Shown one piece after another: positions 6,740 to 61,662 of a stretch of DNA of 64,000 nucleotides. Made by a program: the position numbers and the translations under genes. The DNA comes from an uncultured Candidatus Saccharibacteria bacterium (GTDB taxonomy: Bacteria > Patescibacteriota > Minisyncoccia > SW-4-49-11): positions 35,543-99,542 of the forward strand of contig CAZWIJ010000004.1 in the NCBI GenBank assembly GCA_964633865.1, given 5' to 3'. Position 1 is the stretch's first letter. Each line of letters begins with the position of its first letter. The notes under the pieces are model-generated. The model worked only from the letters and a program-made list of their open reading frames with translations. It was not told the origin of the DNA and ran no database searches.

Positions 6740-6750
6740 ATAAAATTCAA

Positions 6751-7410
6751 TTAAGAAATTAATTTAACTAAATTTTTGTATTCTAATTCTGGATTCTCAG
6801 AGTTAAAAATAGCACTTCCAACGGCAATTGATTCCGCTCCGGACTCTAAGATTTGTGGAATAGTCTCCTTATTAACTCCTCCATCCCATGAAATTTCTAA
6901 TTCACTTAATGTATATCTTTCTTTAAAATCAATAACCTTATCTAAAACTTCAGATTTAAATTTACTCCCATAAAACCCAGGATTGACTCCCATGAATAAA
7001 ACTGTACTAATTTTTTTTACAACTTTCCCAACTTCTCTAATATCTGTATCTGGATTTATAGCTACACCTACTTCTTTTCCAATATCTTTGATTTGATTTA
7101 ATAATTGCCTTAATTCTTCTAAACTTTCTGTTGCTTCTTTGTGAATGATAATCCTGACACAACTAGGAAAAGATTTTAGACTAGCTATTATTTCTTCGCT
7201 TGATTTTTTATCTGCCATAATATGAGCTTCAAATTTTAAATCACCAAAATCTGTATAAAAAAAATCTTTTGGTAATACACTTTTAGAACTTGTTAAGGTA
7301 TTATTCATTATATCTATTTGGACATAATCAGTAAATTTTTTACAAATTTCTATTTTTTGGTTAAAATCTTTTTTATTATCCGTAAGGATAGCTGGTACAA
7401 TTCTTTTCAT
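6751..7410 (-). CDS. rpe: ribulose-phosphate 3-epimerase
   Basis: 219 aa TIM-barrel with VDIMNN... and FMGVNPGFYGSKF motifs typical of Rpe. Confidence 0.8.
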   Translation of the reverse strand: MKRIVPAILTDNKKDFNQKIEICKKFTDYVQIDIMNNTLTSSKSVLPKDFFYTDFGDLKFEAHIMADKKSSEEIIASLKSFPSCVRIIIHKEATESLEELRQLLNQIKDIGKEVGVAINPDTDIREVGKVVKKISTVLFMGVNPGFYGSKFKSEVLDKVIDFKERYTLSELEISWDGGVNKETIPQILESGAESIAVGSAIFNSENPELEYKNLVKLIS

Positions 7411-7518: not shown

Positions 7519-8559
7519 TTAAAAGCTTTCTTCTATGGTGTTTGATAAAACTTGTGTACAATTATAGGGTAGTGGACTTTTTTTCTCTTCAGCTGTACAT
7601 TCTCTTTTTCCTATAACAGGTTGATATTTAAATATATTATCACTAATAAAAATAGCTTCATTCCATTGCTTATCACTTATACTCCTATATTCTCCTGTAT
7701 TTAAATTCATAATAATACCTGATGGTTTTTCTACTGCATCATTTGCCCCCAACTCTTTAGATAAAATTATAAAATTCTCATTTAAAGAAATATCATCTAT
7801 GTATTTAAAATTTGAAAGACCTTCGTATTTAACTAAAATATTGTTATAATATTTATATAAAGTCACTATATTACCCTCATATTTTTCAGAATATTCTAAA
7901 ACCGTAAAATATATATTATTCTTGATTTTATTTGCTGAAAAAACTTTTTCTCTTATTATTGGCATTTTATCTTTGTCTAATGAAGAGTTATCTAAATTTA
8001 TTAAAGGAGTTAGTTTATATTTATTTTCTTTATTTTCAGACAATTTTGTTATATTATCTGAAAAATTACCACCAAAAGGAGCCCCTTTTAAAAGTTTTAT
8101 ATTATATTCTGAGAAAACATTATCTTCAAGAGTAGTCATACCCAGATCATTATTTTTTGCATACAAAAATACCCCCTCTTCTACATTTTCCACTGCATAA
8201 ACTATATATTCATTAATCTCACTTGGTGGAGTTGGGACTACTGTTTTTTCTACTTTGGTATATTCTGATTTATCTTTGCTATATTTTACTTCTTCTACAA
8301 CTGAGACTTCTTTCTCTGGAATTTCAGTTACTACTGGAGGTTTTACTTCTTCAGTGATTATTGGGTCTTGTTTTACTGGTTCTGTTTTATTGGTATTATT
8401 TTCTACCATCTGTGATCTTGGTGTCTCAATCACAACTTCATTATCTGTATTGCTCATATTGGCTTGATACACAAATATTCCTATAACTGGGAATGATAAT
8501 AATAATGTGACTGCCCATAATGGAGCTTTTATAGTCTTGTCAAATGGATTGTTGTTCAT
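7519..8559 (-). CDS. hypothetical membrane-anchored/secreted protein
   Basis: 346 aa. N-terminal TM helix, then a Pro/Glu/Val-rich linker (PPVVTEIPEKEVSVVEEV). No recognisable catalytic motif. Confidence 0.4.
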   Translation of the reverse strand: MNNNPFDKTIKAPLWAVTLLLSFPVIGIFVYQANMSNTDNEVVIETPRSQMVENNTNKTEPVKQDPIITEEVKPPVVTEIPEKEVSVVEEVKYSKDKSEYTKVEKTVVPTPPSEINEYIVYAVENVEEGVFLYAKNNDLGMTTLEDNVFSEYNIKLLKGAPFGGNFSDNITKLSENKENKYKLTPLINLDNSSLDKDKMPIIREKVFSANKIKNNIYFTVLEYSEKYEGNIVTLYKYYNNILVKYEGLSNFKYIDDISLNENFIILSKELGANDAVEKPSGIIMNLNTGEYRSISDKQWNEAIFISDNIFKYQPVIGKRECTAEEKKSPLPYNCTQVLSNTIEESF

Positions 8560-38461: not shown

Positions 38462-40435
38462 TTATTGAGGTCCTAATGGAGTATTCTGATCTATCACAAA
38501 TCCATATTCCAAAACATCGTCAGTGACAGCACCTATTGCATCCATTGCCTCAGGAGATAATCCTGAAACTCTATCGGTAAAGATTGCAGGACCTGATTCT
38601 ATAATAGAAGCAACTACTCTTCTTCCATTTTTTGGATTTGTAACCAAAACTTTTTTATTAGTGTGCCAAGCTTTTGATGAAGATGTGTTTGATATAGTAG
38701 AGGTAAATGGTCTTGGTCTCCAAGCTATATTTTGATATTTGTATACGAATACAACTTCTTCTCCATTATTAGCATTAACTGGTCCTGTAATGGTTATATT
38801 TGAACTAACATTAGAATTTTTAAAATTTGAACTAACATCATATCCTCTTGATTCAACTTTTAAGGTTGTATCATTAATTTTTGAATAAGCAATAATTTCT
38901 GAGCCTACTTTAACATAACCTGTTGAAGGAAATTGTGTAGCATTATTTACTAAAATTTGATTATCTCCAGATCCTAAGTTAGCTCTCAATGAAGTTCTAG
39001 CCTCATACCAATTAACATAATTCCATCTCATTGTAATATAATATTTTTCAGCTTCCACACCTCCTGGAGCTATTGAGCTATTTCTACTACCTGCTGGACA
39101 ACTAGAACTAAATGCTCCACCACTGCTTAGTAATCCATTTTGCAAATCATATCTTGTCCCTGCATTTGCATAATGTTGTTCTGGTGTTTCATTACAATTT
39201 ACTGGTAAATGTTGTTCTCTAGCTGTTTTTCCTGATGTAGCTGGTATTTGATAACCTTGAAGATTAGCTGTAGTAACATCACCAACTAATTCTCCAAGTG
39301 GATGAAGAGCTATCTGATCATCAGAAGCAGATCTTACATTTTCCCATCTATAACCTAGTGCTAAAAAGATTTTATCACTACCAATTGGCCTTCTTTTTCC
39401 ATCTTCTATTAAATATACTGAAGTTCTATCTGCTATAAGAGAACCATTATTGAATCCTATTGGAACACCTTTAGAATAATTATCTATAACTCTAGATTGT
39501 AGTTGTAATATATCTTGCCAATTATATCCATATGAATTAAATATATCAGGACTTAGTATTTGTCTTAACTCATTATTTTTTACTATATATAAGGTTGGTG
39601 AGCCATAAGCTTTTAGGATACTATTTTCAGAATACTTTTTAAGCCTACTAAATATAGGTCCTTCTGCAATAATTGATAATTCATAATCAGTAGCTCTTCT
39701 CACTTGATTCCAATTAAGTCCATAGCTTTCAAATATTTCTGCAGATCCTATTGGTAATCTTTGATTATTTTGCATCAAAAAAACACTAGTATCACTAGAT
39801 ATTAAAAGACCATCTGGATAATATTGATTTTCTCCAGTTGGGAAAGAATCTATTACAGCTTGACTAACTTGAATAGAAGAACTCCATCTATATCTTGCTT
39901 CAAATATTAAAGGAGATGGAATATATCTTTTTTGACCTTTCTCCAAAACATACATATGTCCAGTTGGTCCATAAATAAGACTACCATCTGGATAATTACT
40001 ATTACTAGTTAATACATCTCCAATTGGATGGGGTTCTATTTCTCTATCCGAAACTGAAATAACATTTTCCCACTTATAACCTTTACCTAAAAAAGTTTCT
40101 CCAGAATCTATAGGTCTTCTATATGTATTAGAAACAACATATACAGTACCTCCATAAGCTAAAAGAGAGCCTTCTCTAAACTGCATTTTAGATCCTGTAG
40201 GAATAGAATCTAGATCAGTTTGAGTTGTAACAACTAAATCTTCCCATCTGAATTGAGATATTAACATTTGAGGAGATTCAATATGTCTTTTCAACCCATT
40301 TTCTATATAATATACTTTAGGATCATTTATAGATTTAACCAATAATCCATTGGGAATTTCTACTGCATCTGCATAAATTGGAAAGAAAAGCATTCCTATT
40401 ACCAATATCTTATATAACAAATTATTTTTTAGCAT
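38462..40435 (-). CDS. secreted repeat protein with C-terminal RlpA-like/DPBB-like domain
   Basis: 657 aa. Signal peptide. ~8 tandem ~50-aa repeats (DGSLI..gt.VYlIe.GkrRpI.S..iF...GY.W.nV..vsd..l...P.G). C-terminus (…KKVLVTNPKNGRRVVASIIESGPAIFTDRVSGLSPEAMDAIGAVTDDVLEYGFV) resembles RlpA/3D double-psi beta-barrel domains. Confidence 0.4.
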   Translation of the reverse strand: MLKNNLLYKILVIGMLFFPIYADAVEIPNGLLVKSINDPKVYYIENGLKRHIESPQMLISQFRWEDLVVTTQTDLDSIPTGSKMQFREGSLLAYGGTVYVVSNTYRRPIDSGETFLGKGYKWENVISVSDREIEPHPIGDVLTSNSNYPDGSLIYGPTGHMYVLEKGQKRYIPSPLIFEARYRWSSSIQVSQAVIDSFPTGENQYYPDGLLISSDTSVFLMQNNQRLPIGSAEIFESYGLNWNQVRRATDYELSIIAEGPIFSRLKKYSENSILKAYGSPTLYIVKNNELRQILSPDIFNSYGYNWQDILQLQSRVIDNYSKGVPIGFNNGSLIADRTSVYLIEDGKRRPIGSDKIFLALGYRWENVRSASDDQIALHPLGELVGDVTTANLQGYQIPATSGKTAREQHLPVNCNETPEQHYANAGTRYDLQNGLLSSGGAFSSSCPAGSRNSSIAPGGVEAEKYYITMRWNYVNWYEARTSLRANLGSGDNQILVNNATQFPSTGYVKVGSEIIAYSKINDTTLKVESRGYDVSSNFKNSNVSSNITITGPVNANNGEEVVFVYKYQNIAWRPRPFTSTISNTSSSKAWHTNKKVLVTNPKNGRRVVASIIESGPAIFTDRVSGLSPEAMDAIGAVTDDVLEYGFVIDQNTPLGPQ

Positions 40436-41393: not shown

Positions 41394-42659
41394 TTAATAA
41401 ATCATTTTTTCAAAAGTTTTATTTCCTTCTCTTTTAATATAACATTTTTCTGGGAATAACACATAAAAAGTGGTTCCTTGATTTTGATGAGATGAAAACC
41501 ATATATCTCCATGAATCTCTTTCAAAATTGATTTTACTAAGTATAATCCTAAACCTGTTCCATCAGTATCTACATCATACACATTATCTGCTCTAAATAG
41601 TTTAGTAAATATTTTATCTTTTTGTTTTTCTGGTATACCAATACCAGAGTCTTTAACTGATAGTAAAATATTATTTGATCTAATTGATTTATCTTGAAAA
41701 GAAACTTCTTTTTTTATTGATAAGGATACTTCTATACTTCCTTTGTTTTTAGTATATTTAATTGCATTAGAAAATATATTTTGAAAAATTACCCTTATTA
41801 GAACTTCATCTCCAATATACATTTCTGGTATTTTTTTATCAATTTTAACAATAAATTTTATTTTCTTCTCTTTTATAATACCTTTAAATTCTGATTCTAA
41901 ATCTTTAATCATATGTCTTATGTTGAAATTAGATGGAGTTATTGCAAATGAACCTAATTCTAATCTAGATACATTTAATAAAGAGTTTACTAAATTAATC
42001 ATTCTACCAGTTGATTTTTGAATTTCTTGAATAAACTCTCTACTATCATCTGATAAACTATCACTTAATAATTCAGCATACCATCTAATTGAAGTAAGTG
42101 GGGTTTTTAATTGATGAGAAGCTAGAGATACAAACTCAGTCTTAACTTTATCAATTTCAATTTCCTGAGTTATATCGGTAATAATACCAAACATAAAGGG
42201 ATTCGTCTCTACAATATGATACATTCCTTTAATTCTTATATATCTCTGTTTATCATTATTTATAAAAGTTATTTCTTCAGAAAATGTAATTTCTTTTTCT
42301 ATAGAATCTCTAATTGCATTTGATAACTTTTTTAATTCATTTTTAGGTATAATTTTTTCTAAATCTTTCCAAGAAACTTTATTATAGTATCTTCTAGTAT
42401 TTATTCCTAATATATTCAATACTAATTTATCACATATAAAATATTTATCTTTTAAAGTATAATTCCATGTTCCAATTCCTCCTGCTTCTGAAGATAGCCT
42501 AAATCTTTCTGCTATAAAATCTTTCTCTTCTCTTTCTAATTGATAATCTTCTAAAATATTAATTATAGCTAACTTAGTATCTTCAATATGAGATAATTGA
42601 TTTTTTAATCTAATATTATCTTCAATTAAAGAATCTATCTTCTCAAGATTTTTATTCAT
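41394..42659 (-). CDS. PAS-domain sensor histidine kinase
   Basis: 421 aa. HisKA H-box SLASHQLKTPLTSI, HATPase_c G-boxes (DSGIGIP, GTGLGLYLV). PAS-like region upstream. Confidence 0.75.
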   Translation of the reverse strand: MNKNLEKIDSLIEDNIRLKNQLSHIEDTKLAIINILEDYQLEREEKDFIAERFRLSSEAGGIGTWNYTLKDKYFICDKLVLNILGINTRRYYNKVSWKDLEKIIPKNELKKLSNAIRDSIEKEITFSEEITFINNDKQRYIRIKGMYHIVETNPFMFGIITDITQEIEIDKVKTEFVSLASHQLKTPLTSIRWYAELLSDSLSDDSREFIQEIQKSTGRMINLVNSLLNVSRLELGSFAITPSNFNIRHMIKDLESEFKGIIKEKKIKFIVKIDKKIPEMYIGDEVLIRVIFQNIFSNAIKYTKNKGSIEVSLSIKKEVSFQDKSIRSNNILLSVKDSGIGIPEKQKDKIFTKLFRADNVYDVDTDGTGLGLYLVKSILKEIHGDIWFSSHQNQGTTFYVLFPEKCYIKREGNKTFEKMIY

Positions 42660-43140
42660 TATTATTTAATTTATCCTTTAATATATTTATTTCTTTTTTC
42701 AACTCAATCATCTTTAATTCTCTACCTATCATCAACTTATTTAATCTCTCTACCTCTTTCAAGTTTAATTCTAATGATTCTATCATTTTATTTCTTTCAG
42801 TAATATTTTTAACTACTCCATATATCATATTATTTTTAAGATTTTTATTAATAAACCACTCAAAATATAGAATCTCATTTTTTTTAGAAAGAAACCTAAT
42901 TTGAGAATTACTAATCTCTATATTATCTGAAAACAAAAAGTCTTTTGCTAAATCTCTATCATCTTTATAAATAAATTTTAATATATTCTTATTTAAAATA
43001 TCTTCTTCCATATAACCAGTTATGATAGTTAATAATTTATTAACATTAAAGATTTTATTTTCACTATAATTGATTATAATCATCATTACAGCTCCTGTCT
43101 CAAAAAAATGACATTTTTGTTCTTTATTATCCATATTCAT
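42652..43140 (-). CDS. PAS-like sensor domain protein
   Basis: 162 aa. PAS-like core plus C-terminal coiled coil. Its stop overlaps the kinase start by 8 nt (ATGAATAA). Confidence 0.4.
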   Translation of the reverse strand: MNMDNKEQKCHFFETGAVMMIIINYSENKIFNVNKLLTIITGYMEEDILNKNILKFIYKDDRDLAKDFLFSDNIEISNSQIRFLSKKNEILYFEWFINKNLKNNMIYGVVKNITERNKMIESLELNLKEVERLNKLMIGRELKMIELKKEINILKDKLNNNE

Positions 43141-43144
43141 ATAT

Positions 43145-43597
43145 TTATAATGTTATTTTTATTTCAACTTTTAATTCTGCTAATGGTGCTACAGTTATAA
43201 TTCTATTATTTTGAACCGCTACTTTGTATCCTGTGCTATATGGTTTACTAACAAAAGGATCTTTAGGTAATTCTACAAAATATGCATCATAATTTACTAT
43301 ATCTCCAAGATATAGAAGATTATGATCTCCACATACTGTTTTGTCTACAACAGCACAAATTTCTTGGAAATTACTACTTAAACCTTCTGGTAATTTATCA
43401 TTTTCTATATTATAAGCATAGAGAACTTGTGCTATATTAAGAATTTCAGATTTTCTCTCTCCATTTCTAATAACTGGTAAATATTCTGCCACTTGTTTCT
43501 GTATAAATATTACATATATAATCATAACCATAACAGCTATTGATAAAACTATTTCTAAATATGTAAATCCTTTTTTTCTATTTGATAACTTTTTCAT
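43145..43597 (-). CDS. type IV pilin-like protein (candidate major pilin)
   Basis: 150 aa. RKKGFTYLEIVLSIAVMVMIIYVIF: G|FTxLE prepilin cleavage motif plus hydrophobic helix. Conserved module shared with the 147-aa, 791-aa and 953-aa pilin-like proteins. Confidence 0.6.
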   Translation of the reverse strand: MKKLSNRKKGFTYLEIVLSIAVMVMIIYVIFIQKQVAEYLPVIRNGERKSEILNIAQVLYAYNIENDKLPEGLSSNFQEICAVVDKTVCGDHNLLYLGDIVNYDAYFVELPKDPFVSKPYSTGYKVAVQNNRIITVAPLAELKVEIKITL

Positions 43598-43644: not shown

Positions 43645-44751
43645 TTATAACCCATATCTTCCACGGAGAGCATCAAAGTTCTGTTGAATTTCTGGTCCAG
43701 TGAGAGCTTTATCATACACTTTAATAGAATAAATATCTCCTATAATTCTTCTAAAAGAACTTGATCTTTCATCACCAAAGGAAGTTATATTAGAAAAATT
43801 TGAAGGTGTAGATACTAAAGGTTGAGAAACTCTTTGGACTCCATCAACATAAGCCGTTTGATTTACCCCATCCCAAGTAAGAACAATTTGCCTAACAGTA
43901 TTTGAATCTCCTATTATACCAGTTCCCATATTTAACCAAGAACCATTAAATGAAGCATAAATTTCTCCATTCTGCAAAGGTTGACTAGCTACAGTATTTC
44001 CAGCATATCCAATTCCAAGGTAAGCAGTTCCAATCCAATTATTCAAACTATTATTATGTAATATATATCCAATCCCAACATCAGAACTTGGAGAAGAAAT
44101 AGCTTTAACCCAAACTTCATAAGTCTGAGGTGAATTAGATGTTATAGGAGATGTAAAAGTTCCTCTATCATCAATTCCATCAAATGTCAAAGAACCTTGA
44201 TTAGCAGAATTAAAACCTACTCCATTCAAAAGAGTAGCATCATTTCCAATACTTGCTAAATTTGTCCAATTAGTTCCTGCTCCAGGATATGATGATGGAT
44301 CACCAGCATCCAAATTTAAAACTAATCCATCAGTAACTATACTATTATTTACTTCTACAAAATTTATAACCTTATTCCAAGAAGTTACTTCTACAGCTAA
44401 TCCTATACTTACAATACCTACAAATCTCTGAACAAAATCATCTTTATCTATCCTTATTTCTAATCTTTTCTCTGTAGGTGAATTATCACTTACACTATAA
44501 GTACAGGTTCCACTAACAACATCAGTAGCTGTATAACTAGTATCATTGAAAATTTCAAGCAAAATATTTTCTCTACAATTAATTGCATCTGATTCTATTA
44601 TAACTTGTGTATTATTGGAATAATTTCTATAGATAGATTCGAAACTCATATTAAATAAAGTTAAACTTATACCCAAGGTAACTGTCATTATTATTAGAAC
44701 TGTCATTAATGTAATATATCCTTTTTTCATAGATTTAGAGTGTTTTATCAA
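43645..44751 (-). CDS. pilin-like protein fused to ConA/LamG-like lectin domain
   Basis: 368 aa. Pilin-like N-terminal TM (KKGYITLMTVLIIMTV). C-terminal LVLNLDAGDPSSYPGAGTNWTNL...GSLTFDGIDDRG...YEVWVKA matches the LamG/ConA-like (PF13385-type) pattern. Confidence 0.5.
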   Translation of the reverse strand: MIKHSKSMKKGYITLMTVLIIMTVTLGISLTLFNMSFESIYRNYSNNTQVIIESDAINCRENILLEIFNDTSYTATDVVSGTCTYSVSDNSPTEKRLEIRIDKDDFVQRFVGIVSIGLAVEVTSWNKVINFVEVNNSIVTDGLVLNLDAGDPSSYPGAGTNWTNLASIGNDATLLNGVGFNSANQGSLTFDGIDDRGTFTSPITSNSPQTYEVWVKAISSPSSDVGIGYILHNNSLNNWIGTAYLGIGYAGNTVASQPLQNGEIYASFNGSWLNMGTGIIGDSNTVRQIVLTWDGVNQTAYVDGVQRVSQPLVSTPSNFSNITSFGDERSSSFRRIIGDIYSIKVYDKALTGPEIQQNFDALRGRYGL

Positions 44752-45208
44752 AATTTAGTTGATATTTTAGTGTTTGTCTACTATTAGTAAGGTATGTGGC
44801 ATCCATATTGACTGTAATAGAATCATTATCTATCGTTCCTTTATTCTCAAATAATAAATTTGTAATAGAAATTTCATCTATATGTAAAGGAATTATCCCG
44901 TTAACACTACTTTCTACAAAAATCCCTGATTGAACTTCATATGTATAAGTAATACCTCCACTAACTAAAACTAAACTAGTTTGACTTGTATTAGGAGTTG
45001 GAGAAGTAATACTAGTTGCTGTATCTATTCTATGAGATATATGTTGTAGAGCTGCATCTGTCCCCATTTGAACTTGATTCATAGCAAGGGTTTTTTCTCT
45101 AACTGTAATTGTTGTAACATATACTTGTGATAGAGCTAGTGTTACAACTCCAATTAAAGATACCCCTAACATCAACTCTAATAATGATAAACCTTTTTTC
45201 TTTTTCAT
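44735..45208 (-). CDS. pseudopilin / minor pilin
   Basis: 157 aa. KKKGLSLLELMLGVSLIGVV prepilin N-terminus. Overlaps neighbours (operon). Confidence 0.55.
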   Translation of the reverse strand: MKKKKGLSLLELMLGVSLIGVVTLALSQVYVTTITVREKTLAMNQVQMGTDAALQHISHRIDTATSITSPTPNTSQTSLVLVSGGITYTYEVQSGIFVESSVNGIIPLHIDEISITNLLFENKGTIDNDSITVNMDATYLTNSRQTLKYQLNFDKTL

Positions 45209-47304
45209 TATGGTATTATTAAACTAGCTGGTTTTGTTGTCCCATCACTGAATACAAGAATAAAACTAAGAGTACTTCCAGCAGATAATGCTCCATTAAA
45301 TCTAAATTCCAAAGGATAATCTGCATAAAGATCAAAATCTGTGATATTAGCATTATAAGGTGAAGTATTATTATAACTACCAGCAGTAGCATTATTAACA
45401 CGAATACTACTTAATCTTCGATTTCCAGTACTATTCCAAGTTATATTGTTTATATTTGTAACTCTAACTCTACAACCAGAATTATTTCTAATTCTTATAT
45501 TGCTTAAATTCCTTCTGTTTCCCGATATTGTAATTTGAGACACATCTACAGTTGTAGTATTCGCCTGATTCGTACATAAATTTATGTCTGTACTAAAATT
45601 AAATGAAGGTACTACATAAGATGACCCATCAGCAAAGACTAATCTAAACGAATTATTACTATTAAAAATTGTTCCAGAAAACTGAAAAAGTAATTCTTGA
45701 GTATTCTCTATATTTGTATTATTGATAGGAATATTTCTACCCAAAACTGTATCTCTAGTTAGATTCCCAGTCCATACATTAAGAGAATTGTCAGTTCTAT
45801 TAATAAATTTAGGTCCAATTTTAATAGAAGCTAAATTAACATTTGTGGTCCAAATAAATTCATTAATATCGGTTAAAACAACTGGACAAGCTGTTCCTGT
45901 AGTATTAACTAACTCTATCCCCCTTATTATCCTATTATCGGAAGTTAGGCTATTTGAAGTAGTATCAGGGAAAGCGGTATTTATGATATTAGCCTGGAAA
46001 TTTTGAGCTTGAGTATTAGAAATACAAGGATCTATTGGTAAAGAAATTATACCACTATCAAGTGTTGATCCATCAGTAAAGACTACTGTGAATGAGATAT
46101 TTTGTGCAGTCATTGGAGCATTGTATTGTAAAACTAACTCCTTAGTGTTTGTTATAACTGTATTTGTAACATCAATATTATGACCTGGACTAGACAAAGG
46201 AGCTAAATTACCTGTCCATACATTAACAGTATTATTTAAATCTCCTATTTTGATTGCTGATAGGTTATTACTTTGCCATAATAAAGAGTTTATGCCGTCT
46301 ACCTCAATATTACAAGTTGTACCTGTATTATTAATAAGTCTTATTCCTCTTATCATTCTATTTTGACTTACACCTATAGAATCAAATGACCAATTACTGG
46401 TATCCAAAGTTGTATTCTGTGCTTGAGTGAATACACAAGGATCTAAATCAGAATAAATCACTCCACTATTCAAAACTGATCCATCACTAAATATTACCGC
46501 GAAAGTTAAACTCTGCCCCGTCATCTGACTATCAAACAAAAATGCTAGTTCATGAGTTCCCGTTATATCTTGATCATTTATATCTATATTTTTATTTGAA
46601 GGAGACTCTGTACCAGACCAAATATTAAAGTTGGAGTCTAATTTGTCAAAACCTTCTGCTCCAAATTTTACATTGGTTAAGTTATTATTTTGCCATTCAA
46701 CAGAGTTTATATTTGTTGCTTGAATATTACAATCACTAGAATTATTATTAATTAATCTTATTCCTCGAATTAAGCGAGATCTATTAGATGGAGAATTATC
46801 ATTGGTAGCAGATTCTATAGAAAAACTACTTATGTCTAATGTAGTATTCTCAGCCTGAGTACCTAAACATGTTATCAAAGGTTCTTGCCAACTTTTATAT
46901 GTTACTTGAGAAGATAGACTATCACCTCTTCCATTTTTACCAATCCAAGTGATATTGATAACAGCTTGTACCGTATCAGAATCTGGTTGAGTTAGAGTTA
47001 CTGATCTTTGGTAGTCTCCTAAAGTTTCTACTCCAGAAATTAATGCCCAATTACTTCCAAGTGTAAATCCAAGCGGTGTCGCAGTAGAATAACCAACTAA
47101 TCTATCATATTTCAAAGTATCTAATGCTCTTGTAGCTTCTTGCAAATATTCATAACCTTGTGTCCTTTCTCCTTTAACAAGAATACTTCTTTGATATTCT
47201 GTAATTGTTCCAACTATACCAACAATTACAAAACCTGTTAAGCCTATTGATAAAACTATTTCTAATAATGAAAAACCTTTATTTTTTTTAAATAACAAGC
47301 CCAT
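45208..47304 (-). CDS. large minor-pilin-like protein with 4 internal ~125-aa repeats
   Basis: 698 aa. KNKGFSLLEIVLSIGLTGFVIVG prepilin N-terminus. Four tandem repeats each containing R(M/L)IRGIRLINN..(S/T)xC...NIN...W...L..(V/I)K.G. Confidence 0.5.
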   Translation of the reverse strand: MGLLFKKNKGFSLLEIVLSIGLTGFVIVGIVGTITEYQRSILVKGERTQGYEYLQEATRALDTLKYDRLVGYSTATPLGFTLGSNWALISGVETLGDYQRSVTLTQPDSDTVQAVINITWIGKNGRGDSLSSQVTYKSWQEPLITCLGTQAENTTLDISSFSIESATNDNSPSNRSRLIRGIRLINNNSSDCNIQATNINSVEWQNNNLTNVKFGAEGFDKLDSNFNIWSGTESPSNKNIDINDQDITGTHELAFLFDSQMTGQSLTFAVIFSDGSVLNSGVIYSDLDPCVFTQAQNTTLDTSNWSFDSIGVSQNRMIRGIRLINNTGTTCNIEVDGINSLLWQSNNLSAIKIGDLNNTVNVWTGNLAPLSSPGHNIDVTNTVITNTKELVLQYNAPMTAQNISFTVVFTDGSTLDSGIISLPIDPCISNTQAQNFQANIINTAFPDTTSNSLTSDNRIIRGIELVNTTGTACPVVLTDINEFIWTTNVNLASIKIGPKFINRTDNSLNVWTGNLTRDTVLGRNIPINNTNIENTQELLFQFSGTIFNSNNSFRLVFADGSSYVVPSFNFSTDINLCTNQANTTTVDVSQITISGNRRNLSNIRIRNNSGCRVRVTNINNITWNSTGNRRLSSIRVNNATAGSYNNTSPYNANITDFDLYADYPLEFRFNGALSAGSTLSFILVFSDGTTKPASLIIP

Positions 47305-47698
47305 ATTGATTTATATTAATTATTTTGTCTATTGTAAGATTTATTGTAGTATCAGTTGAAAGTCCTGTCACTCTATCAAATGTAACTATAATTGGAGATC
47401 CCATACTTATATTTTTCAAATCATAAATCTGATCAAAATTTGTATCTCTATTATTATAATCATCTCCCAAAAAAACTATTGCTGATGAAGAATCTATTCT
47501 TACAGACCAATCAGAATCCTCCAATCCAAATACAGCTTTTTCTCTTGCCACTCTTAGAGCTAAAATTACATTAATTTCTGAATTTCTCTGTTCATTTTTT
47601 TCTATCACTTCTATAGATATTGGAAGGGAAAAGGATACTAATATTCCAATAACAGCAATTGTCAACATTATTTCTAATAAAGAAAATGCTTCTTTCAT
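47288..47698 (-). CDS. pseudopilin / minor pilin
   Basis: 136 aa. MKEAFSLLEIMLTIAVIGILVS (FSLLE with hydrophobic helix; Ala rather than Gly at -1). Confidence 0.5.
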   Translation of the reverse strand: MKEAFSLLEIMLTIAVIGILVSFSLPISIEVIEKNEQRNSEINVILALRVAREKAVFGLEDSDWSVRIDSSSAIVFLGDDYNNRDTNFDQIYDLKNISMGSPIIVTFDRVTGLSTDTTINLTIDKIININQYGLVI

Positions 47699-47699
47699 A

Positions 47700-48743
47700 T
47701 TACAATCCTTTTAATAATGAATACATAGGTCCTATAATAGAATAAGCCAATCCCAAAACTGCAAACCAAACTATAATCAGAATAGCTGGTTCTAATATGC
47801 TTGGAATAGATTTTGCTAATCTATACAATTCTTTCTCATATCTTATACCTATTTTTTGAAACACAGTTAAAAAACTTCCTGATTTTTCTGCAAATACAAT
47901 CATAGCAGGAACTTGATCAGGAAACAGCATTTCTGTTTCTGGAATAGATTTGATAACTTCATCCATTGTTTTTCCTTCATCTATTAAATCTATAACTTTT
48001 TGATAATACTCCTTATAATAATGATTATCAGAAACTCCTTTTAATAAAGTTAAAGCTTCTGTAAAAGGATATCCAGCATTTAGTAAGCTTCCTAACATAT
48101 ATCCCATTCTTGATGATTCTGCTGATATAACAATTTTTTTTATTAGCGGTGTAGATAATTGTATTCTCTCACCAATAAATTTAGTTTTCTTATTGAAAAA
48201 TAAAAAATAAAAAGCAATTAACATAAATAAAACTACAGCTGGAACAAAAATCATTCCCCACTTAGCAAAAAAATTTCCAATAGAAATTAAAATTTGTGTT
48301 TGAATTGGTATTTCAACTCTCAAAACTAAAAATGATTCTGTTAATTTTGGTAAAACAAACCACATAATTCCAAGCCCAACAAAGAAAGTTGTTAATAAAA
48401 CAAATACAGGATAGGTTAACACTGTAATAATTTTATTATTTAAAGAGAACCTTTTTTCTTCATTAATCAGAGCCAGTTTGAAATTTTCTTGTAGACTACC
48501 ACTTTCCTCGCCTATCTTAATAAGAGAAACCACATAATGTGGAAATATTTTATTTTTATCAAAAGACTCCCATAATAAATTTCCTTCTTCAACTAAACTA
48601 ACCACATTTTCAAAAGCTTTTTTTAAATCTTTATCTTTTATTTTTTTCGATACTTCTGAAATAGATTCTACTATAGATATCCCAGATTCAGACAAATTAT
48701 AAATATTTTCTAATGCATAAAATGCTTGTTTTTGATTTATCAT
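47700..48743 (-). CDS. pilC: type IV pilus / T2SS inner-membrane platform protein (PilC/GspF family)
   Basis: 347 aa. Two T2SSF-like domains with 3 TM segments. Directly downstream of pilB. Confidence 0.8.
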   Translation of the reverse strand: MINQKQAFYALENIYNLSESGISIVESISEVSKKIKDKDLKKAFENVVSLVEEGNLLWESFDKNKIFPHYVVSLIKIGEESGSLQENFKLALINEEKRFSLNNKIITVLTYPVFVLLTTFFVGLGIMWFVLPKLTESFLVLRVEIPIQTQILISIGNFFAKWGMIFVPAVVLFMLIAFYFLFFNKKTKFIGERIQLSTPLIKKIVISAESSRMGYMLGSLLNAGYPFTEALTLLKGVSDNHYYKEYYQKVIDLIDEGKTMDEVIKSIPETEMLFPDQVPAMIVFAEKSGSFLTVFQKIGIRYEKELYRLAKSIPSILEPAILIIVWFAVLGLAYSIIGPMYSLLKGL

Positions 48744-48747
48744 ATAT

Positions 48748-50445
48748 TTACTCTTTTAAAAATTTTTCTGGAATTTTTACAACTCTAACCAATTCTTCAA
48801 AGTTAGTAATTCCTTTTTTTACTTTATCCAATCCATCCTCAAACATAGATATATATTCTTCCTCATTTATAATTGACTGTACTGATTTTATATTCTCAGC
48901 TAAAGCATCTTTCATATCATGAGTAATAGCTAAAACTTCAAATACTGCTGTTCTTCCTTTATATCCAGTAAATCCACATTCTCTACACCCTTTGCCATTA
49001 AAGACATTTATTTTAGTTTTTGGAAAAACTTTAAATATACCCGGAACAATCTTTTTTAACTCCGCAATAGACATTTCTTTACTATATTTACAATGAGGAC
49101 AAATAGTTCTAATTAGTCTTTGAGAAATAATTAAATCTATAGTAGATGAAAGTAAAAATGGCTCTATGCCCATGTCATAAAGTCTAGGTAAAGTAGATAT
49201 AGCATCATTTGCATGAAATGTAGATAAAACTAAATGACCAGTTAAAGCAGAGTTGACCGCAATTTCAGCTGTTTCATTATCTCTTATTTCACCAACTAAA
49301 ATAACATCTGGATCTTGTCTAACAATCGATCTTAAAGCTTTAGCAAAAGTTATATTTTTTTGCTCATTTACTTGAATTTGATTTACTCTGTCTATTCTAT
49401 ATTCTACGGGATCTTCAATAGTAGTAATATTGACTTTAGTATCAATCAAATCTCTAATAGCAGCATATAGAGTTGTTGTTTTTCCTGACCCTGTAGGACC
49501 ACTTACTAAAATTAGCCCGAAAGGATTTTTTAGATTATCATTAATTAATTTAAAAGCTTTATCAGATAAACCTATAGAATCTAAACCTAAATCACTTACA
49601 TACCTAAATAGGATTCTAACAACAACTTTTTCACCATCCATAACTGGAGCAACCGAGATTCTCATATCAACCGTTGTGTTTTTTTTAGTCAAATACCTGA
49701 TTGAACCATCCTGAGTTTCAAAATGCTCATCAAGTCTTAATTTAGAAAGTACTTTTAATCTGTTAACAATATTCTCATAAAAATTTTTAGGCAGAATACC
49801 AATATCATGCAAAACTCCATCTATACGAAATCTAATAACAACATCTTCCGAAAATGGTTCAAAATGTATATCAGAAGCTTTTTGAGCAAGAGCATCTTCA
49901 AATATTTCTTTCACTATGTCAGGAACAACTTGCTCTCCTTTTGATACAATTTCAGATATTCTGTCAGAAAAATTATTTTTATATAATAAAAAGGAATCTT
50001 CTATTGAATTTGGCAAAGAATAACCTAATTTAACTTCTTTATCAGGGAAAATTTCTTTTATTATAGAAATTAACTTTTCATCAGGATTACTAGTGGCCAC
50101 AAATATTTCCATCTTACTCTCTGCAAAAGGGACTATTTTATATTTATTAGCTATGTCATAATTTATTTTTTTTACTAAATCTGTACTTGGAGGAAATGAT
50201 TTTAGATCAAATAAATTTAGAGAATAAAACTCAGACATAGCCTGACCAACAAGGTCTGATGTTACTATATTAGAAGATATTAATATAGTATAAGCTTCAT
50301 CAAAACTTTTATCAGAGAAATCTACCTGTAAATCATCAATATCATCTTGCTCAATATAATTTTGTTTAACAATGATATTAACAAGGTCTAGACCTGTTAT
50401 CTCTTTAATTTCTATTTCTTTATTTTTAAAAATTGGATTTTGCAT
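48748..50445 (-). CDS. pilB: type IV pilus assembly ATPase (PilB/GspE family)
   Basis: 565 aa. Walker A SGPTGSGKTTTL, Asp box, Walker B ILVGEIRD, His box LVLSTFHAN, tetracysteine CPHC...CREC motif. Confidence 0.85.
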   Translation of the reverse strand: MQNPIFKNKEIEIKEITGLDLVNIIVKQNYIEQDDIDDLQVDFSDKSFDEAYTILISSNIVTSDLVGQAMSEFYSLNLFDLKSFPPSTDLVKKINYDIANKYKIVPFAESKMEIFVATSNPDEKLISIIKEIFPDKEVKLGYSLPNSIEDSFLLYKNNFSDRISEIVSKGEQVVPDIVKEIFEDALAQKASDIHFEPFSEDVVIRFRIDGVLHDIGILPKNFYENIVNRLKVLSKLRLDEHFETQDGSIRYLTKKNTTVDMRISVAPVMDGEKVVVRILFRYVSDLGLDSIGLSDKAFKLINDNLKNPFGLILVSGPTGSGKTTTLYAAIRDLIDTKVNITTIEDPVEYRIDRVNQIQVNEQKNITFAKALRSIVRQDPDVILVGEIRDNETAEIAVNSALTGHLVLSTFHANDAISTLPRLYDMGIEPFLLSSTIDLIISQRLIRTICPHCKYSKEMSIAELKKIVPGIFKVFPKTKINVFNGKGCRECGFTGYKGRTAVFEVLAITHDMKDALAENIKSVQSIINEEEYISMFEDGLDKVKKGITNFEELVRVVKIPEKFLKE

Positions 50446-50494: not shown

Positions 50495-50887
50495 TTATTT
50501 ACTATCATATAAATAAAAGTTTACTATTTCTAATATTTTATTTAAAGGCATCTCCGATTTTATATAATAAGCTGTTGCCCCAAGATCTTTAACTCTTAAC
50601 TTGTCTTCTGGTTGACCTAGATTAGATAGAATAATAATAGGAATCTCTTTATTTTTTTGTCTAATAGCTTTTAGCACTCCAAATCCATCTATTTCTGGCA
50701 CAATTAAATCTAAAAGGACTATATGTATATTAGAATCAAACAAATTAATAGCCTCTCTTCCATTATAAGTTGTGAGAATATCATAACCTGCTGATCTTAA
50801 CTTTAATTCCAAAGCCTTAGCTAAAGGCTTTTCATCTTCACAAATCAAAATTTTTCTCTTATTATCTAATTTTTCTATTTTATCCAT
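50495..50887 (-). CDS. single-domain response regulator (CheY/PilH-like receiver)
   Basis: 130 aa. Receiver fold with phospho-acceptor Asp in VLLDLIVPEIDG. No output domain. First gene of the pilus operon. Confidence 0.75.
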   Translation of the reverse strand: MDKIEKLDNKRKILICEDEKPLAKALELKLRSAGYDILTTYNGREAINLFDSNIHIVLLDLIVPEIDGFGVLKAIRQKNKEIPIIILSNLGQPEDKLRVKDLGATAYYIKSEMPLNKILEIVNFYLYDSK

Positions 50888-53020: not shown

Positions 53021-53464
53021 TCAACCACTAACTTCTATCGATATATCTAATTCTGGATTAATTACATCCACCCAAATTTTATTATCCAAAATTCTTAATC
53101 TATATCCAGTTCCATCAATTTCATCTTCATCTAAAGGATCTTCTGGAATAGATTCAAAGTATTCACTCTTTAATAAAGATAAATCCAGATAACCTGAACA
53201 ATCTATCGCCTTATCATCACAAATTTCCTGATATTGATCAGTTATTCCAGCAGGGTATGATCCTTCTAATGATCTATATTTCAAAATTACGGAGATTATT
53301 TCTTGAACATCTAATCGTCTTTGATTATTTCTTTGTTTCTGTAATCTATTTGTACTATTAACCACAATTAATATTCCACCTAATAAAATACCAATAATTG
53401 AAATAGTTAATATCATTTCTAAAACTGTGAAAGCTGTTTTATTATTATTTATTTTTGTTCTCAT
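53021..53464 (-). CDS. type IV pilin-like protein (orphan paralog)
   Basis: 147 aa. KTAFTVLEMILTISIIGILLGGILIVV. Same conserved module (…YP.G…QEICD…IDC.G…DLSLL…IPEDP) as the 150-aa pilin and the giant proteins. Confidence 0.55.
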   Translation of the reverse strand: MRTKINNNKTAFTVLEMILTISIIGILLGGILIVVNSTNRLQKQRNNQRRLDVQEIISVILKYRSLEGSYPAGITDQYQEICDDKAIDCSGYLDLSLLKSEYFESIPEDPLDEDEIDGTGYRLRILDNKIWVDVINPELDISIEVSG

Positions 53465-59256: not shown

Positions 59257-61662
59257 TTATAAATTCCTACTTTTTATATTATGAGTAACAATATCAACTG
59301 GAGTTCCATACTTAAGTCTCGATAATTGTTTAATTGCTTCTTGTAGTTTTGGATTACTTCTACTAGCAAAGATAACATTAAAATTAAATGCCTTACTATT
59401 TTTACCATCTATCATAAGTTTCATAACCCCTTTCAGATTATCCATATTCACAAGATCATAAGCTGAATAGTCTGGTTTCATTTTTTGTTCCAAAACTTCA
59501 GCATCATCAGTTCCTATTCTAAATGCAACCGTTGTTCCAACATTACCAAATATAGCTGTTCTGATATTTTCTGGTAATTGACCTATAAATTGATGAGCTA
59601 AAATCATATCTAATCTATACTTTCTTGCCTCGGACAAAATTGTAGATACACTATCTGTAGTAAAATTTTGGAACTCATCCAGATATAAATAAAAATCTCT
59701 TCTTTGATCTTCTGGAATATTACTTCTTTTGAAGGCAGCCATCTGTAATTTAGATACAAGAAGCATACCTAATAAATTACTATTCATATCCCCAATCGCT
59801 CCTTTTGACAAATTAGCTATCAAAATTTTACCTGAATTCATTATATCTTGAAAATCAAATGATGATTTAGGTTGTCCTATAATATTTCTAACCATTTCAT
59901 TTTCTATAAATCTTCCTAATTTTGATAAAAGATATCCCAATGTATCTCCAGCACTTTGTCCTTTCTGTGCAGCTGGGAATTCTTTTTCCCAAAAATCTTT
60001 TACAATAGGATCATGAACATTTTCTAAAACTTTTGCCCGGAAAGCATCATCTGTAAATAACTTTGGTATTTCTACTATAGTTCTAGGGTTTTCTACATCA
60101 TCCATCAAAGCTGACATAGCCATTCTCATATTATGTTCAAAAATAGGTCCAATCATACTGGGATCAGATACAAGCCTATAGAATATAGAAATCATCTCTT
60201 GACTAAGAAAATCTTTCTCTTCTGGAGTTCTTGCCTCTAAGATATTCAAACCCAATGGATAATCTATATCCTGAGGATTAAAATAAATCACATCCTCATA
60301 CCTATCCTTAGGAATCATACCTAAAACATCTTCTGCAAAATCACCATTAGGATCAAGCAATGCTAATCCTCTACCAGCTTTCAAATCTAGTTCTATCATT
60401 CTTTTCATAAAAGAAGTCTTTCCTGTTCCAGTCTGACCAATAACATACATATGTCTTCTCCTATCTTCATCTTGAATTCTAACTAACTGTTCTTCTCCTC
60501 GATAAACATTTATACCTAAGACTAAACCTTCTTTAGGTAAATTGGCTGGTGGAAAAGATGCTTTAGATGTTACCCATTGAATTTTAGGAGTTTGTAAATG
60601 AGATGTAGGTATATGAAATAAGCTTGTCAATTCTTCTGTATTTAGTATCATTGATTCTCCTTTTTCAAAAATTCTAAATATAAATTTATAGATAAACTTC
60701 CAAATGTTTTTATTACTATAATCTATAAATTTAAATGAATTAAGATTCTGATCCACAAACTGTGAAAAAGATCCTTTTATCTGTTCCATTAAAATATCTG
60801 ATCTACTTCCTTCAGATGATATTGTCATTAATCTTATATTAACTTCAAAACCTGTTTTGTCAGTTTTTTTCTGCATTCTTTGTATTAAATCCTCTTCAGA
60901 AGCTGTTAACTGTCTAATGTCTTTATTCTCTTCTTTTTTAGTTGATTTAAAAGCATTTACGATAAATCCGATTATATCTAAAGTATCTTTTTTATAAGCA
61001 TTTTGAAAAGTAAGCCCATCTTTTCTCATAGCTTGGGTTACTTTTTTTGTTTTTTCTACCCAACTATTAGAAGATTTTTTAATTAATATTTGAATTACTG
61101 CACTTTCCTCTTCATATATTTTTGATAAAGCTGAAGTTAAACTAGATAAAGGGTCTACTTCTAAATCTTGATAAGTTTTTATTGGAATAATTGATGGTTT
61201 ATTAAACTTAAGATATGAAGCTCTTATTTCTCCTTTTGTAGTAAGAACATTGTAATCATCAATTTTTGTTAAATCAGCATTTGGATATACTCCATGAAGT
61301 TGTTTCTCAAAGATAGTTTCATATTCTTTTGGAACTCCCATATAAAAATGAATTTCATCTTTTTCAGTTGGACTAACAATTTCGAGAGATATACTAGGAT
61401 CAACTTTGATTAAGCCAGAAGATTTATCTTTCAAAAATGTAAAACTATTATAAACTTGCTCCATAACTGTTATCAAAGCTTTTGGATCTTTATTTTCATC
61501 CTCTAGATTTCTTGGAACTTTAACTTGATATTGAGTTAGAATTAATCCTCTTTGAATCTTTTTTTCTTCAATAATTGGTTTTATAAAAACATAATAGACT
61601 GTTGTTAAAATCATTGCTAACCAAACAGAAATAATTATTATTAGGATAAAGACTAGATTCAT
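59257..61662 (-). CDS. TraG/TraD/VirD4-like type IV coupling protein ATPase (membrane-anchored)
   Basis: 801 aa. N-terminal TM helix, Walker A VIGQTGTGKTS, TrwB-like LLDPNGDF...VIYFNPQDIDYPLGLNIL, Walker B/TraG-D_C-like FYLYLDEFQNF...ARKYRLDMILAHQ. Confidence 0.5.
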   Translation of the reverse strand: MNLVFILIIIISVWLAMILTTVYYVFIKPIIEEKKIQRGLILTQYQVKVPRNLEDENKDPKALITVMEQVYNSFTFLKDKSSGLIKVDPSISLEIVSPTEKDEIHFYMGVPKEYETIFEKQLHGVYPNADLTKIDDYNVLTTKGEIRASYLKFNKPSIIPIKTYQDLEVDPLSSLTSALSKIYEEESAVIQILIKKSSNSWVEKTKKVTQAMRKDGLTFQNAYKKDTLDIIGFIVNAFKSTKKEENKDIRQLTASEEDLIQRMQKKTDKTGFEVNIRLMTISSEGSRSDILMEQIKGSFSQFVDQNLNSFKFIDYSNKNIWKFIYKFIFRIFEKGESMILNTEELTSLFHIPTSHLQTPKIQWVTSKASFPPANLPKEGLVLGINVYRGEEQLVRIQDEDRRRHMYVIGQTGTGKTSFMKRMIELDLKAGRGLALLDPNGDFAEDVLGMIPKDRYEDVIYFNPQDIDYPLGLNILEARTPEEKDFLSQEMISIFYRLVSDPSMIGPIFEHNMRMAMSALMDDVENPRTIVEIPKLFTDDAFRAKVLENVHDPIVKDFWEKEFPAAQKGQSAGDTLGYLLSKLGRFIENEMVRNIIGQPKSSFDFQDIMNSGKILIANLSKGAIGDMNSNLLGMLLVSKLQMAAFKRSNIPEDQRRDFYLYLDEFQNFTTDSVSTILSEARKYRLDMILAHQFIGQLPENIRTAIFGNVGTTVAFRIGTDDAEVLEQKMKPDYSAYDLVNMDNLKGVMKLMIDGKNSKAFNFNVIFASRSNPKLQEAIKQLSRLKYGTPVDIVTHNIKSRNL

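Follow-up and report, generated by a model that had tools for sequence, protein, structure and literature searches.

Type IV pilins that carry accessory C-terminal domains have been described in several bacteria. The Streptococcus sanguinis modular pilins PilB (vWA module) and PilC (ConA-like lectin module) are adhesins (Raynaud et al. 2021, PMC8179133), and the same study catalogued 264 modular-pilin architectures, including repeat-rich examples from the Candidate Phyla Radiation (CPR), and predicted many further modular pilins whose modules lack signatures (PMC8179133). In Nanosynbacter lyticus TM7x, the minor pilins PilX1 and PilX2 bear accessory C-terminal domains and were proposed to be tip adhesins, and host binding is efficient only when PilX2 is present (PMC11623550). 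CofB of enterotoxigenic Escherichia coli (ETEC) and TcpB of Vibrio cholerae are located at the pilus tip, where they contribute to adhesion or to initiation (summary in PMC8179133). Here we analyze a stretch of 64,000 nucleotides from an uncultured Candidatus Saccharibacteria bacterium (assembly GCA_964633865.1, contig CAZWIJ010000004.1, positions 35,543 to 99,542; hereafter the window), and within it a gene for a 698-amino-acid (aa) pilin-like protein ending in four tandem repeats, which had been picked out in a first-pass annotation made from the sequence.

The 698-aa protein resembles the S. sanguinis modular pilins in having a small class III pilin module joined through a linker to C-terminal modules, and in being encoded as a minor pilin of a PilB/PilC machinery. 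Its C-terminal modules appear to fold independently, as they are set off by a linker at about aa 138-153 and are found on other scaffolds elsewhere. It differs from them in bearing four tandem copies of an unmatched domain, and the demonstrated adhesion is that of the S. sanguinis proteins. TM7x PilX1 and PilX2 are likewise minor pilins of CPR type IV pili that have extra domains at the C-terminus, but they are without a predicted PilD signal, and the 698-aa protein has a canonical one. The PilX2 module is a beta-propeller, and a tandem four-copy array is not described in PMC11623550. CofB and TcpB share the layout of pilin module, flexible linker and beta-repeat or beta-sandwich domains without sequence signatures; they differ in being T4b-class proteins, each a single trimer-forming initiator pilin, and we found no sequence or Foldseek similarity between them and the module. 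Finally, the fibrillar adhesins, in which repeated stalk domains project an adhesive one (PMC9210967), also combine tandem beta-sandwich repeats, lineage-specific copy number, evolution that is fast relative to the anchor, and a distinct terminal unit. They are anchored in the cell wall or outer membrane, whereas the anchor here would be a pilin module on a dynamic filament, and the terminal unit of the 698-aa protein belongs to the same domain family as its stalk units.

We consider it probable, albeit far from assured, that the 698-aa protein is a modular minor pilin of a type IV pilus, that it is displayed at the tip, and that its repeats form an arm for adhesion or reach. The concept is unchanged, since both modular pilins and CPR pilins with repeats were already known; what is new is the module family (~79 representative clusters, restricted to pilins) and its tandem use on an I-type-like scaffold. 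The protein is a documented case for the prediction of Raynaud et al. that signature-invisible modular pilins exist. On how the ultrasmall CPR/Patescibacteria recognise and attach to hosts, the sole genetic evidence so far points to accessory-domain minor pilins (PMC11623550). The module is compact, is modelled with high confidence and has no counterpart in Pfam, NCBIfam or the Protein Data Bank (PDB). Because it is nearly always C-terminal on pilins and occurs in 1-6 copies and on several scaffolds, it is a tangible candidate for a domain that binds, or serves as a stalk, at the pilus tip. The gene and its parts are as follows (positions are those of the window):

45208-47304, minus strand: whole gene of the 698-aa candidate modular minor pilin, from the listing of open reading frames (ORFs); stop codon at 45208-45210
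47275-47304, minus strand: class III signal leader, aa 1-10 (MGLLFKKNKG), read from the sequence, with predicted prepilin-peptidase cleavage after Gly10
47113-47274, minus strand: mature N-terminal alpha-1 helix, aa 11-64, with Phe at +1, Glu at +5 and a hydrophobic spine, from AlphaFold and the ComGE match
46882-47112, minus strand: globular pilin head and start of the linker, aa 65-141, from AlphaFold; I-type (GspI/PilV/ComGE-like) by inference
46450-46881, minus strand: repeat 1, aa 142-285, with Cys146 and Cys192, acidic (pI 4.2); 44.7 bits with the independent profile described below
46039-46449, minus strand: repeat 2, aa 286-422, with Cys290 and Cys331; AlphaFold mean pLDDT 94.8; 58.9 bits with the same profile
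45589-46038, minus strand: repeat 3, aa 423-572, with Cys427 and Cys473, penultimate type; 39.4 bits
45211-45588, minus strand: repeat 4, aa 573-698, with Cys577 and Cys611, terminal type, basic (pI 9.6); 71.1 bits

The N-terminus, MGLLFKKNKG|FSLLEIVLSIGLTGFVIVGIV, opens with a short leader of basic character that has Gly at -1, followed by a hydrophobic stretch of about 20 residues with Phe at +1 and Glu at +5, and it reads as the canonical class III (prepilin) signal that had been claimed for it in the first-pass annotation, with the leader ending at Gly10. Against Pfam N_methyl the protein scores 18.2 bits, slightly under the cut-off of 21.2. An AlphaFold model of aa 1-285, computed from a 46-sequence alignment (pLDDT 89.4, pTM 0.59), places in order a helix at aa 9-64 (block pLDDT 90-97), a small sheet at aa 77-137 with strands at 77-81, 87-90, 93-95, 98-108, 111-121 and 127-137, a linker of lower confidence (about aa 138-153) and, at aa 154-279, the first sandwich. 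The pTM value is consistent with domains that are joined flexibly. As modelled, this portion of the protein is a pilin lollipop, a long helix on an antiparallel beta-sheet head, with a grafted module. The signal, the modelled alpha-1 helix and beta head, and the location of the gene in an operon with PilB and PilC together bear out its earlier description as pilin-like.

The leader codons contain a run of eight A residues (47278-47289, minus strand, AAAAAAAATAAA, coding for KKNK; the corresponding residues in P0002, an orthologue treated below, are NRKK). The run probably reflects just the Lys codons of an AT-rich genome, and its position near the start could permit slipped-strand on/off switching. 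In composition, Asn, Ser and Thr make up 33.5% of the 698-aa protein, which contains 27 N-x-S/T sequons, and this richness may come from AT-rich codon bias or have to do with surface glycosylation.

Beyond the pilin module lie four tandem divergent repeats (aa 142-285, 286-422, 423-572 and 573-698), in number as first proposed. The unit had been put at ~125 aa and proves longer, 126-150 aa with a mean of ~139. Pairwise BLASTP among the four units gave E values from 1e-36 to 2e-6. An independent hidden Markov model (HMM), built from 90 distant family members with all units of the window and of P0002 left out, found four full-length copies in the 698-aa protein, with a full-sequence E value of 5e-53 at the scale of 1.8 billion proteins; when the repeat region was shuffled 200 times with its composition preserved, the highest score with the same model was 7.6 bits. 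The sequence motifs by which the repeats had been recognized hold for the first three units: R(M/L)IRGI..N..G..C is clean in repeats 1-3 and degenerate in repeat 4 (RNLSNIRIRNNSGC), and N(V/I)W(T/S)G is present in repeats 1-3 and missing from repeat 4, which is without the NVW(T/S)G loop and ends ...LIIP. The proposed conservation of Cys and Trp also needs adjustment, as the first Trp is found in all four units and the Cys positions are two per unit. Across 99 module copies, both Cys residues are present in 32, neither in 54 and one in 13 (Fisher p=2e-14, a statistic that ignores phylogenetic relatedness). Such co-occurrence fits a disulfide tying the N-terminal segment to the sandwich body, and the modules are probably disulfide-stapled. 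Few columns of the family are invariant or nearly so (Asn40, Trp58, Phe109 and Asp126).

The last 12 codons of the gene (45211-45246, ...DGTTKPASLIIP) encode a hydrophobic-x-Pro tail that is common to the family. The final residue is Pro in 39 of the 71 family proteins with a C-terminal module, against a background of 2.8%; the tail consensus is DGSTK-x4-[I/F]-[S/T]-P-COOH, and internal modules end ...V-x-[V/I]-D-[L/F]. The Pro tail could be a protection against proteases or a docking strand. A C-terminal beta-strand "plug" has reportedly been described of late for PilC/PilY1, with no link to the Pro tail shown.

AlphaFold2 prediction of repeat 2 from a 99-sequence alignment gave an all-beta structure of ~10 strands (mean pLDDT 94.8, pTM 0.88), which is in keeping with the beta-sandwich suggested at the outset. 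Comparison of this model with 350,542 PDB chains by Foldseek returned no match at E<=1e-3 or with a template modelling (TM) score above 0.5, and a Foldseek search of BFVD gave no significant match to it. The best TM scores, 0.36-0.47, were to generic beta-sandwiches: TTHA1873, BT_0084, DsbD-alpha, CBM6/CBM32, GH2 sugar-binding and MSCRAMM domains. Pfam and NCBIfam scans of the 698-aa protein found no family in the repeat region, no Pfam family was reached by the 99 module copies or by 20 full-length homologues, and sequence and profile searches of PDB chains gave no match to the repeat region. The module thus has no named family in Pfam, NCBIfam, PDB sequences or the Foldseek comparison, as had been surmised, and none of these searches led to a confident match with a known domain family unrelated to pili. 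A literature search likewise found no published description of the module.

Two families gave recurrent faint signals. The PKD domain (PF00801/PF18911) was tried and rejected: 3 of the 99 module copies match it at E<=1 (best 0.0044), with no full-length match at the gathering score, and the precomputed PF18911 match of P0002 is only "faint". Approximately 20 PKD-repeat proteins, large ones among them, in the HMM list were discarded, as they match only profile positions ~74-142, at an F-x-F-x-D-G-S segment; such cross-matchers, which include P0020, P0024, P0027, P0028, P0034, P0035 and P0038, are a trap for the building of a family model. The most recurrent weak family is PF01917 (archaellin/archaeal pilin), which 6 of 99 copies match at E<=1 and 3 of 99 at E<0.01, the best value being 6.4e-5. 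In hhalign, the module and an archaellin alignment paired with 0.8% probability over one strand-loop-strand, the targets being N-terminal fragments of <=122 aa. A scan of the 20 full-length homologues did not locate the weak Arch_flagellin matches. A relationship to archaellins thus gains no support from this comparison, which was a weak one.

We also sought the repeat in other genomes. Word-indexed searches returned, with the full protein, only itself and one orthologue (P0002) and, with a 99-sequence module profile, one extra protein; only an exhaustive HMM search was productive. With a 10-unit profile and 1.84 billion representative proteins, that search gave 95 matches at E<=1e-3, of which 79 contain near-full modules. 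These carriers hold one copy in 44 cases, two in 18, three in 9, four in 6, and five and six in one case each, and in 71 of the 79 no more than 12 residues separate the end of the last module from the C-terminus. A pilin-type N-terminus is found in 73 of the 79: 60 have a class III signal with Glu or Asp at +5, and 13 have a hydrophobic N-helix without Glu or Asp at that position (PilX/GspK-like). Five of the six carriers that are not pilin-like are N-terminally truncated fragments. Since 73 of 79 carriers are pilin-like and the rest are nearly all truncated, the module is essentially pilin-specific, and the suggestion that it is pilus-associated is upheld.

The scaffolds beneath the module, classified by sequence reading, include PilV/GspI-like, GspH-like, PilW/GspJ-like and PilX-like N-terminal modules; these labels have tool support only for the PilV/GspI-like group and for one PilX_N match. 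To judge from these assignments, the module is mobile between scaffolds. It is at times combined with FN3 domains (Pfam-confirmed) and, in our own reading, with beta-propeller-like inserts. For example, in a Saccharibacteria locus (L014) it follows FN3 on a pilin with a PilW/GspJ-like N-terminal module. The genomes of the module subfamily belong to Paceibacterota, Wolfebacteria, Saccharibacteria and Gracilibacteria, plus one Aminicenantia metagenome-assembled genome (MAG), and the family is probably mostly CPR. In the subfamily loci from Paceibacterota, Wolfebacteria, Saccharibacteria and Gracilibacteria, L013, L014 and L015 among them, ORF sizes are as expected of a PilB-PilC-pilin operon, and PilB and PilC are Pfam-confirmed in the Wolfebacteria and Gracilibacteria loci (L013 and L015). 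Next to its module-bearing pilin, L014 also encodes, at 5585-7105, an I-type-like pilin with about seven repeats of a different, ~45-aa Cys-containing motif (...YYN.S.KDLKYA.CD..C....NW..V.VD..GDVG.YTSL.LD..KPRISYY...), probably a beta-propeller, which indicates that one scaffold can receive different modules by swapping.

The distribution of the module has a bearing on whether the 698-aa protein belongs to a filament at all. It might instead be a surface protein held in the membrane by a pilin-like signal-anchor, and its repeats would then cross the wall or S-layer. We regard this as very improbable. The sub-threshold N_methyl score, the bulk of a 698-aa subunit for a filament and the lack of a prepilin peptidase among the ORFs tested (10 further ORFs of the window) would all suit such a protein. 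However, the G-1/F+1/E+5 motif is canonical, the gene is coupled between two pilin genes and follows PilB and PilC, the module occurs on four minor-pilin scaffold classes in the pilus operons of other genomes, and larger modular pilins are known on pili (PMC8179133).

The sole orthologue found, P0002, is a 985-aa protein with six repeats in a fully syntenic operon; a metagenome scan for further orthologues returned unrelated pilin N-termini only. The pilin modules of the two proteins are 84% identical, whereas the repeats are only 50-69% identical, and from this difference we infer that the array is a surface-exposed, fast-evolving arm. Repeat 1 corresponds to repeat 1 of P0002, repeat 2 to its repeats 2-4 (62-69% identity), repeat 3 to its repeat 5 (51%) and repeat 4 to its repeat 6 (60%). 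The three central units of P0002 share 72-82% identity with one another, which points to recent tandem duplication. As the alignments have it, the array grows by duplication of the central unit, with the penultimate and terminal units being fixed, specialised types. The terminal unit has a pI of 9.6 here and 7.7 in P0002, and the pI of the other units is 4.2-4.7. That this unit is distinct, conserved in position and closest to the family consensus (71 bits) suggests an ancestral pilin with one terminal module, to which the internal units were added afterwards. Members of the 698-aa cluster are identical or one residue apart, apart from one chimeric fragment, and give no population signal.

This mode of growth could also be that of a passive stalk or shield, in which the modules bind nothing and serve to space, to shield or to vary tip length or antigenicity, with the ligand bound by the lectin of the K-position pilin described below. 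Copy number does vary through the central unit, from four to six between the orthologues and from one to six in the family, as stalk domains in fibrillar adhesins typically do (PMC9210967); the lectin-type module is encoded two genes downstream; and the paucity of invariant or near-invariant columns is what a scaffold would show. We nevertheless think it unlikely that the modules are passive. A single module on a pilin, as in 44 of the 79 carriers, would make a poor spacer, which suggests that the module does something in its own right, and the conserved, distinct and most canonical terminal unit fits a functional end domain.

The 698-aa gene stands in a closely packed operon in the order response regulator, PilB, PilC, 136-aa pilin, 698-aa gene, 157-aa pilin, 368-aa protein, 150-aa pilin, PAS protein and histidine kinase:

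50495-50887, minus strand: response regulator (Pfam and NCBIfam matches)
48748-50445, minus strand: PilB/GspE ATPase (Pfam T2SSE, 3.4e-118; NCBIfam PilB, 5e-144)
47700-48743, minus strand: PilC/GspF platform protein (Pfam T2SSF, 1.2e-37)
47288-47698, minus strand: 136-aa H-type-like minor pilin, upstream of the 698-aa gene (NCBIfam GspH, 2.7e-4; ComGD, 1.7e-3; IV_pilin_GFxxxE)
44735-45208, minus strand: 157-aa pilin in the J position, downstream of the 698-aa gene (Pfam N_methyl, 23.8 bits, above cut-off)
43645-44751, minus strand: 368-aa K-position pilin-like protein with a ConA-like lectin (Laminin_G_3) module (PF13385, E 1e-9)
43145-43597, minus strand: 150-aa GspG-like pilin, candidate major subunit (N-terminus KKGFTYLEIVLS; weak NCBIfam GspG match)
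42652-43140, minus strand: PAS protein (Pfam and NCBIfam matches)
41394-42659, minus strand: sensor histidine kinase (Pfam and NCBIfam matches)

The end of the 136-aa pilin gene overlaps the start of the 698-aa gene by 17 nucleotides (nt), and the start codon of the 157-aa pilin gene overlaps the 698-aa stop codon (TAATG), so that translational coupling is indicated at both junctions. The response regulator on one side and the PAS protein and histidine kinase on the other flank the pilus genes and are kept in the orthologous contig (L001), which suggests two-component control of the operon. An identical 698-aa protein is present on at least 24 metagenome contigs, always in the same operon arrangement.

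The four genes from the 136-aa pilin onward follow the order of the H-I-J-K minor pilins, which cap the filament (bioRxiv 10.64898/2026.09.18.752573): the 136-aa protein (GspH/ComGD), the 698-aa protein, the 157-aa pilin, assigned to J by its position, and the 368-aa protein, which has Met at +5 and is assigned to K likewise by position. The best NCBIfam match of the 698-aa protein is ComGE at aa 6-59 (E 2e-7, 27.9-31 bits against a cut-off of 49), and scans of 27 homologous pilin modules with NCBIfam gave ComGE in 18, XpsI in 10, PilV in 10 and GspI in 6, all sub-threshold. The gene order and the recurrence of these weak ComGE, XpsI, PilV and GspI matches are the grounds for an I-type-like reading, and the carrier is most likely an I-type core minor pilin of the GspI/PilV/PilI/ComGE class, as predicted from sequence features. 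Like the I-type core minor pilins, it occupies the slot after an H-like pilin and before the J and K genes and has a ~130-aa head with Glu at +5; classical I-type pilins, in contrast, are among the smallest subunits and are without a C-terminal extension. None of the curated I-type models (GspI, XpsI, PilV, PilI and ComGE) was matched above cut-off by the 698-aa protein, for which reason we call it only "I-type-like", without family membership.

A ComGE-like minor pilin would also suit a Com-like pilus for DNA uptake, in which the 698-aa protein would assist in DNA capture, the basic terminal repeat being one possible means. The operon genes are without a retraction ATPase, PilM/N/O or a secretin, as in the Com systems of monoderms, ComGE is the best NCBIfam match of the pilin module, and the pI of the terminal repeat, 9.6, stands against 4.2-4.7 elsewhere in the array. 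However, the ComGE match is sub-threshold and covers the helix only, the protein as a whole is net acidic (44 Lys and Arg against 58 Asp and Glu) and the terminal unit of P0002 is near neutral (pI 7.7). The lectin-type module of the neighbouring pilin suggests binding to glycans and not to DNA, and in TM7x the non-essential pilin mutants tested were without a competence defect (PMC11623550). A role in DNA uptake therefore appears improbable.

The preferred reading, a modular minor pilin displayed at the tip, would work as follows. Prepilin peptidase would cleave the leader after Gly10, and the mature protein would join the H-, J- and K-like minor pilins in a priming complex that later becomes the filament cap. 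PilB would then polymerise the major pilin, which is probably the 150-aa GspG-like protein to judge by its sequence, and the cap would be pushed outward to the tip. From there the four-domain arm would project, by ~15-20 nm if extended (an estimate that takes ~4-5 nm per beta-sandwich domain), and would adhere to or reach toward surfaces or host cells, probably via glycans, beside the ConA-like lectin in the K position. With that lectin module, the predicted tip complex would bear two different grafted modules. The K-position protein itself begins KKGYITLMTVL, with Met at +5 and without Glu at that position; other contigs have its gene annotated at 353-361 aa, and the listed TTG start is probably too far upstream.

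Several results weigh against a tip-displayed, adhesive minor pilin. The I-type matches are sub-threshold and lie mostly in the N-terminal helix; no pilin was among the matches when the two-domain model was used for a fold search, and a pilin-head profile run against PDB sequences found only the N-terminal helices of unrelated pilins. A gene for the prepilin peptidase (peptidase A24) was not among the 10 further window ORFs scanned, those ORFs only being covered, and the GTDB representative genomes gave no orthologue of the 698-aa protein. The sub-significant Foldseek matches (TM <= 0.47) give no functional pointer, the cysteine statistic is subject to the relatedness noted above, and adhesion by the repeats is argued from analogy alone.

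It is conceivable, if decidedly doubtful, that the module is a Patescibacteria-centred host-recognition domain, the ligand-binding unit at the pilus tip of episymbiotic ultrasmall bacteria, with its sequence and copy number tuning which glycans of the host surface are recognised and its tail acting as a docking or stabilising strand. If true, the family of ~80 clusters would offer a way to predict and test the host range of CPR bacteria that have not been cultivated.

A few features of the window remain to be mentioned. Its G+C content is 23-33% per 2-kb block, mostly 25-30%, its ORFs are intact under code 11, which argues against Gracilibacteria, and an Rfam scan of the window found one tRNA only and no relevant match. 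The G+C content, the distribution of the module family and the type of operon suggest that the window is probably from a CPR/Patescibacteria-type bacterium. An orphan gene for a 147-aa pilin (53021-53464, minus strand, TAFTVLEMILT...) lies outside the operon, ~2.1 kb from its response-regulator end; the protein resembles the 150-aa GspG-like pilin, including the Cys pair in the head, and may be an alternative major pilin. Two ORFs, of 657 aa (38462-40435, minus strand) and 346 aa (7519-8559, minus strand), have no Pfam match at E<=1e-3, and the 657-aa gene has kept its position in the orthologous contig L001. Finally, an 801-aa protein (59257-61662, minus strand) contains TrwB/TraG-type coupling-protein domains of type IV secretion systems (T4SS) and may belong to the monoderm-type conjugation-like system that has been reported in Patescibacteria (PMC12102498).

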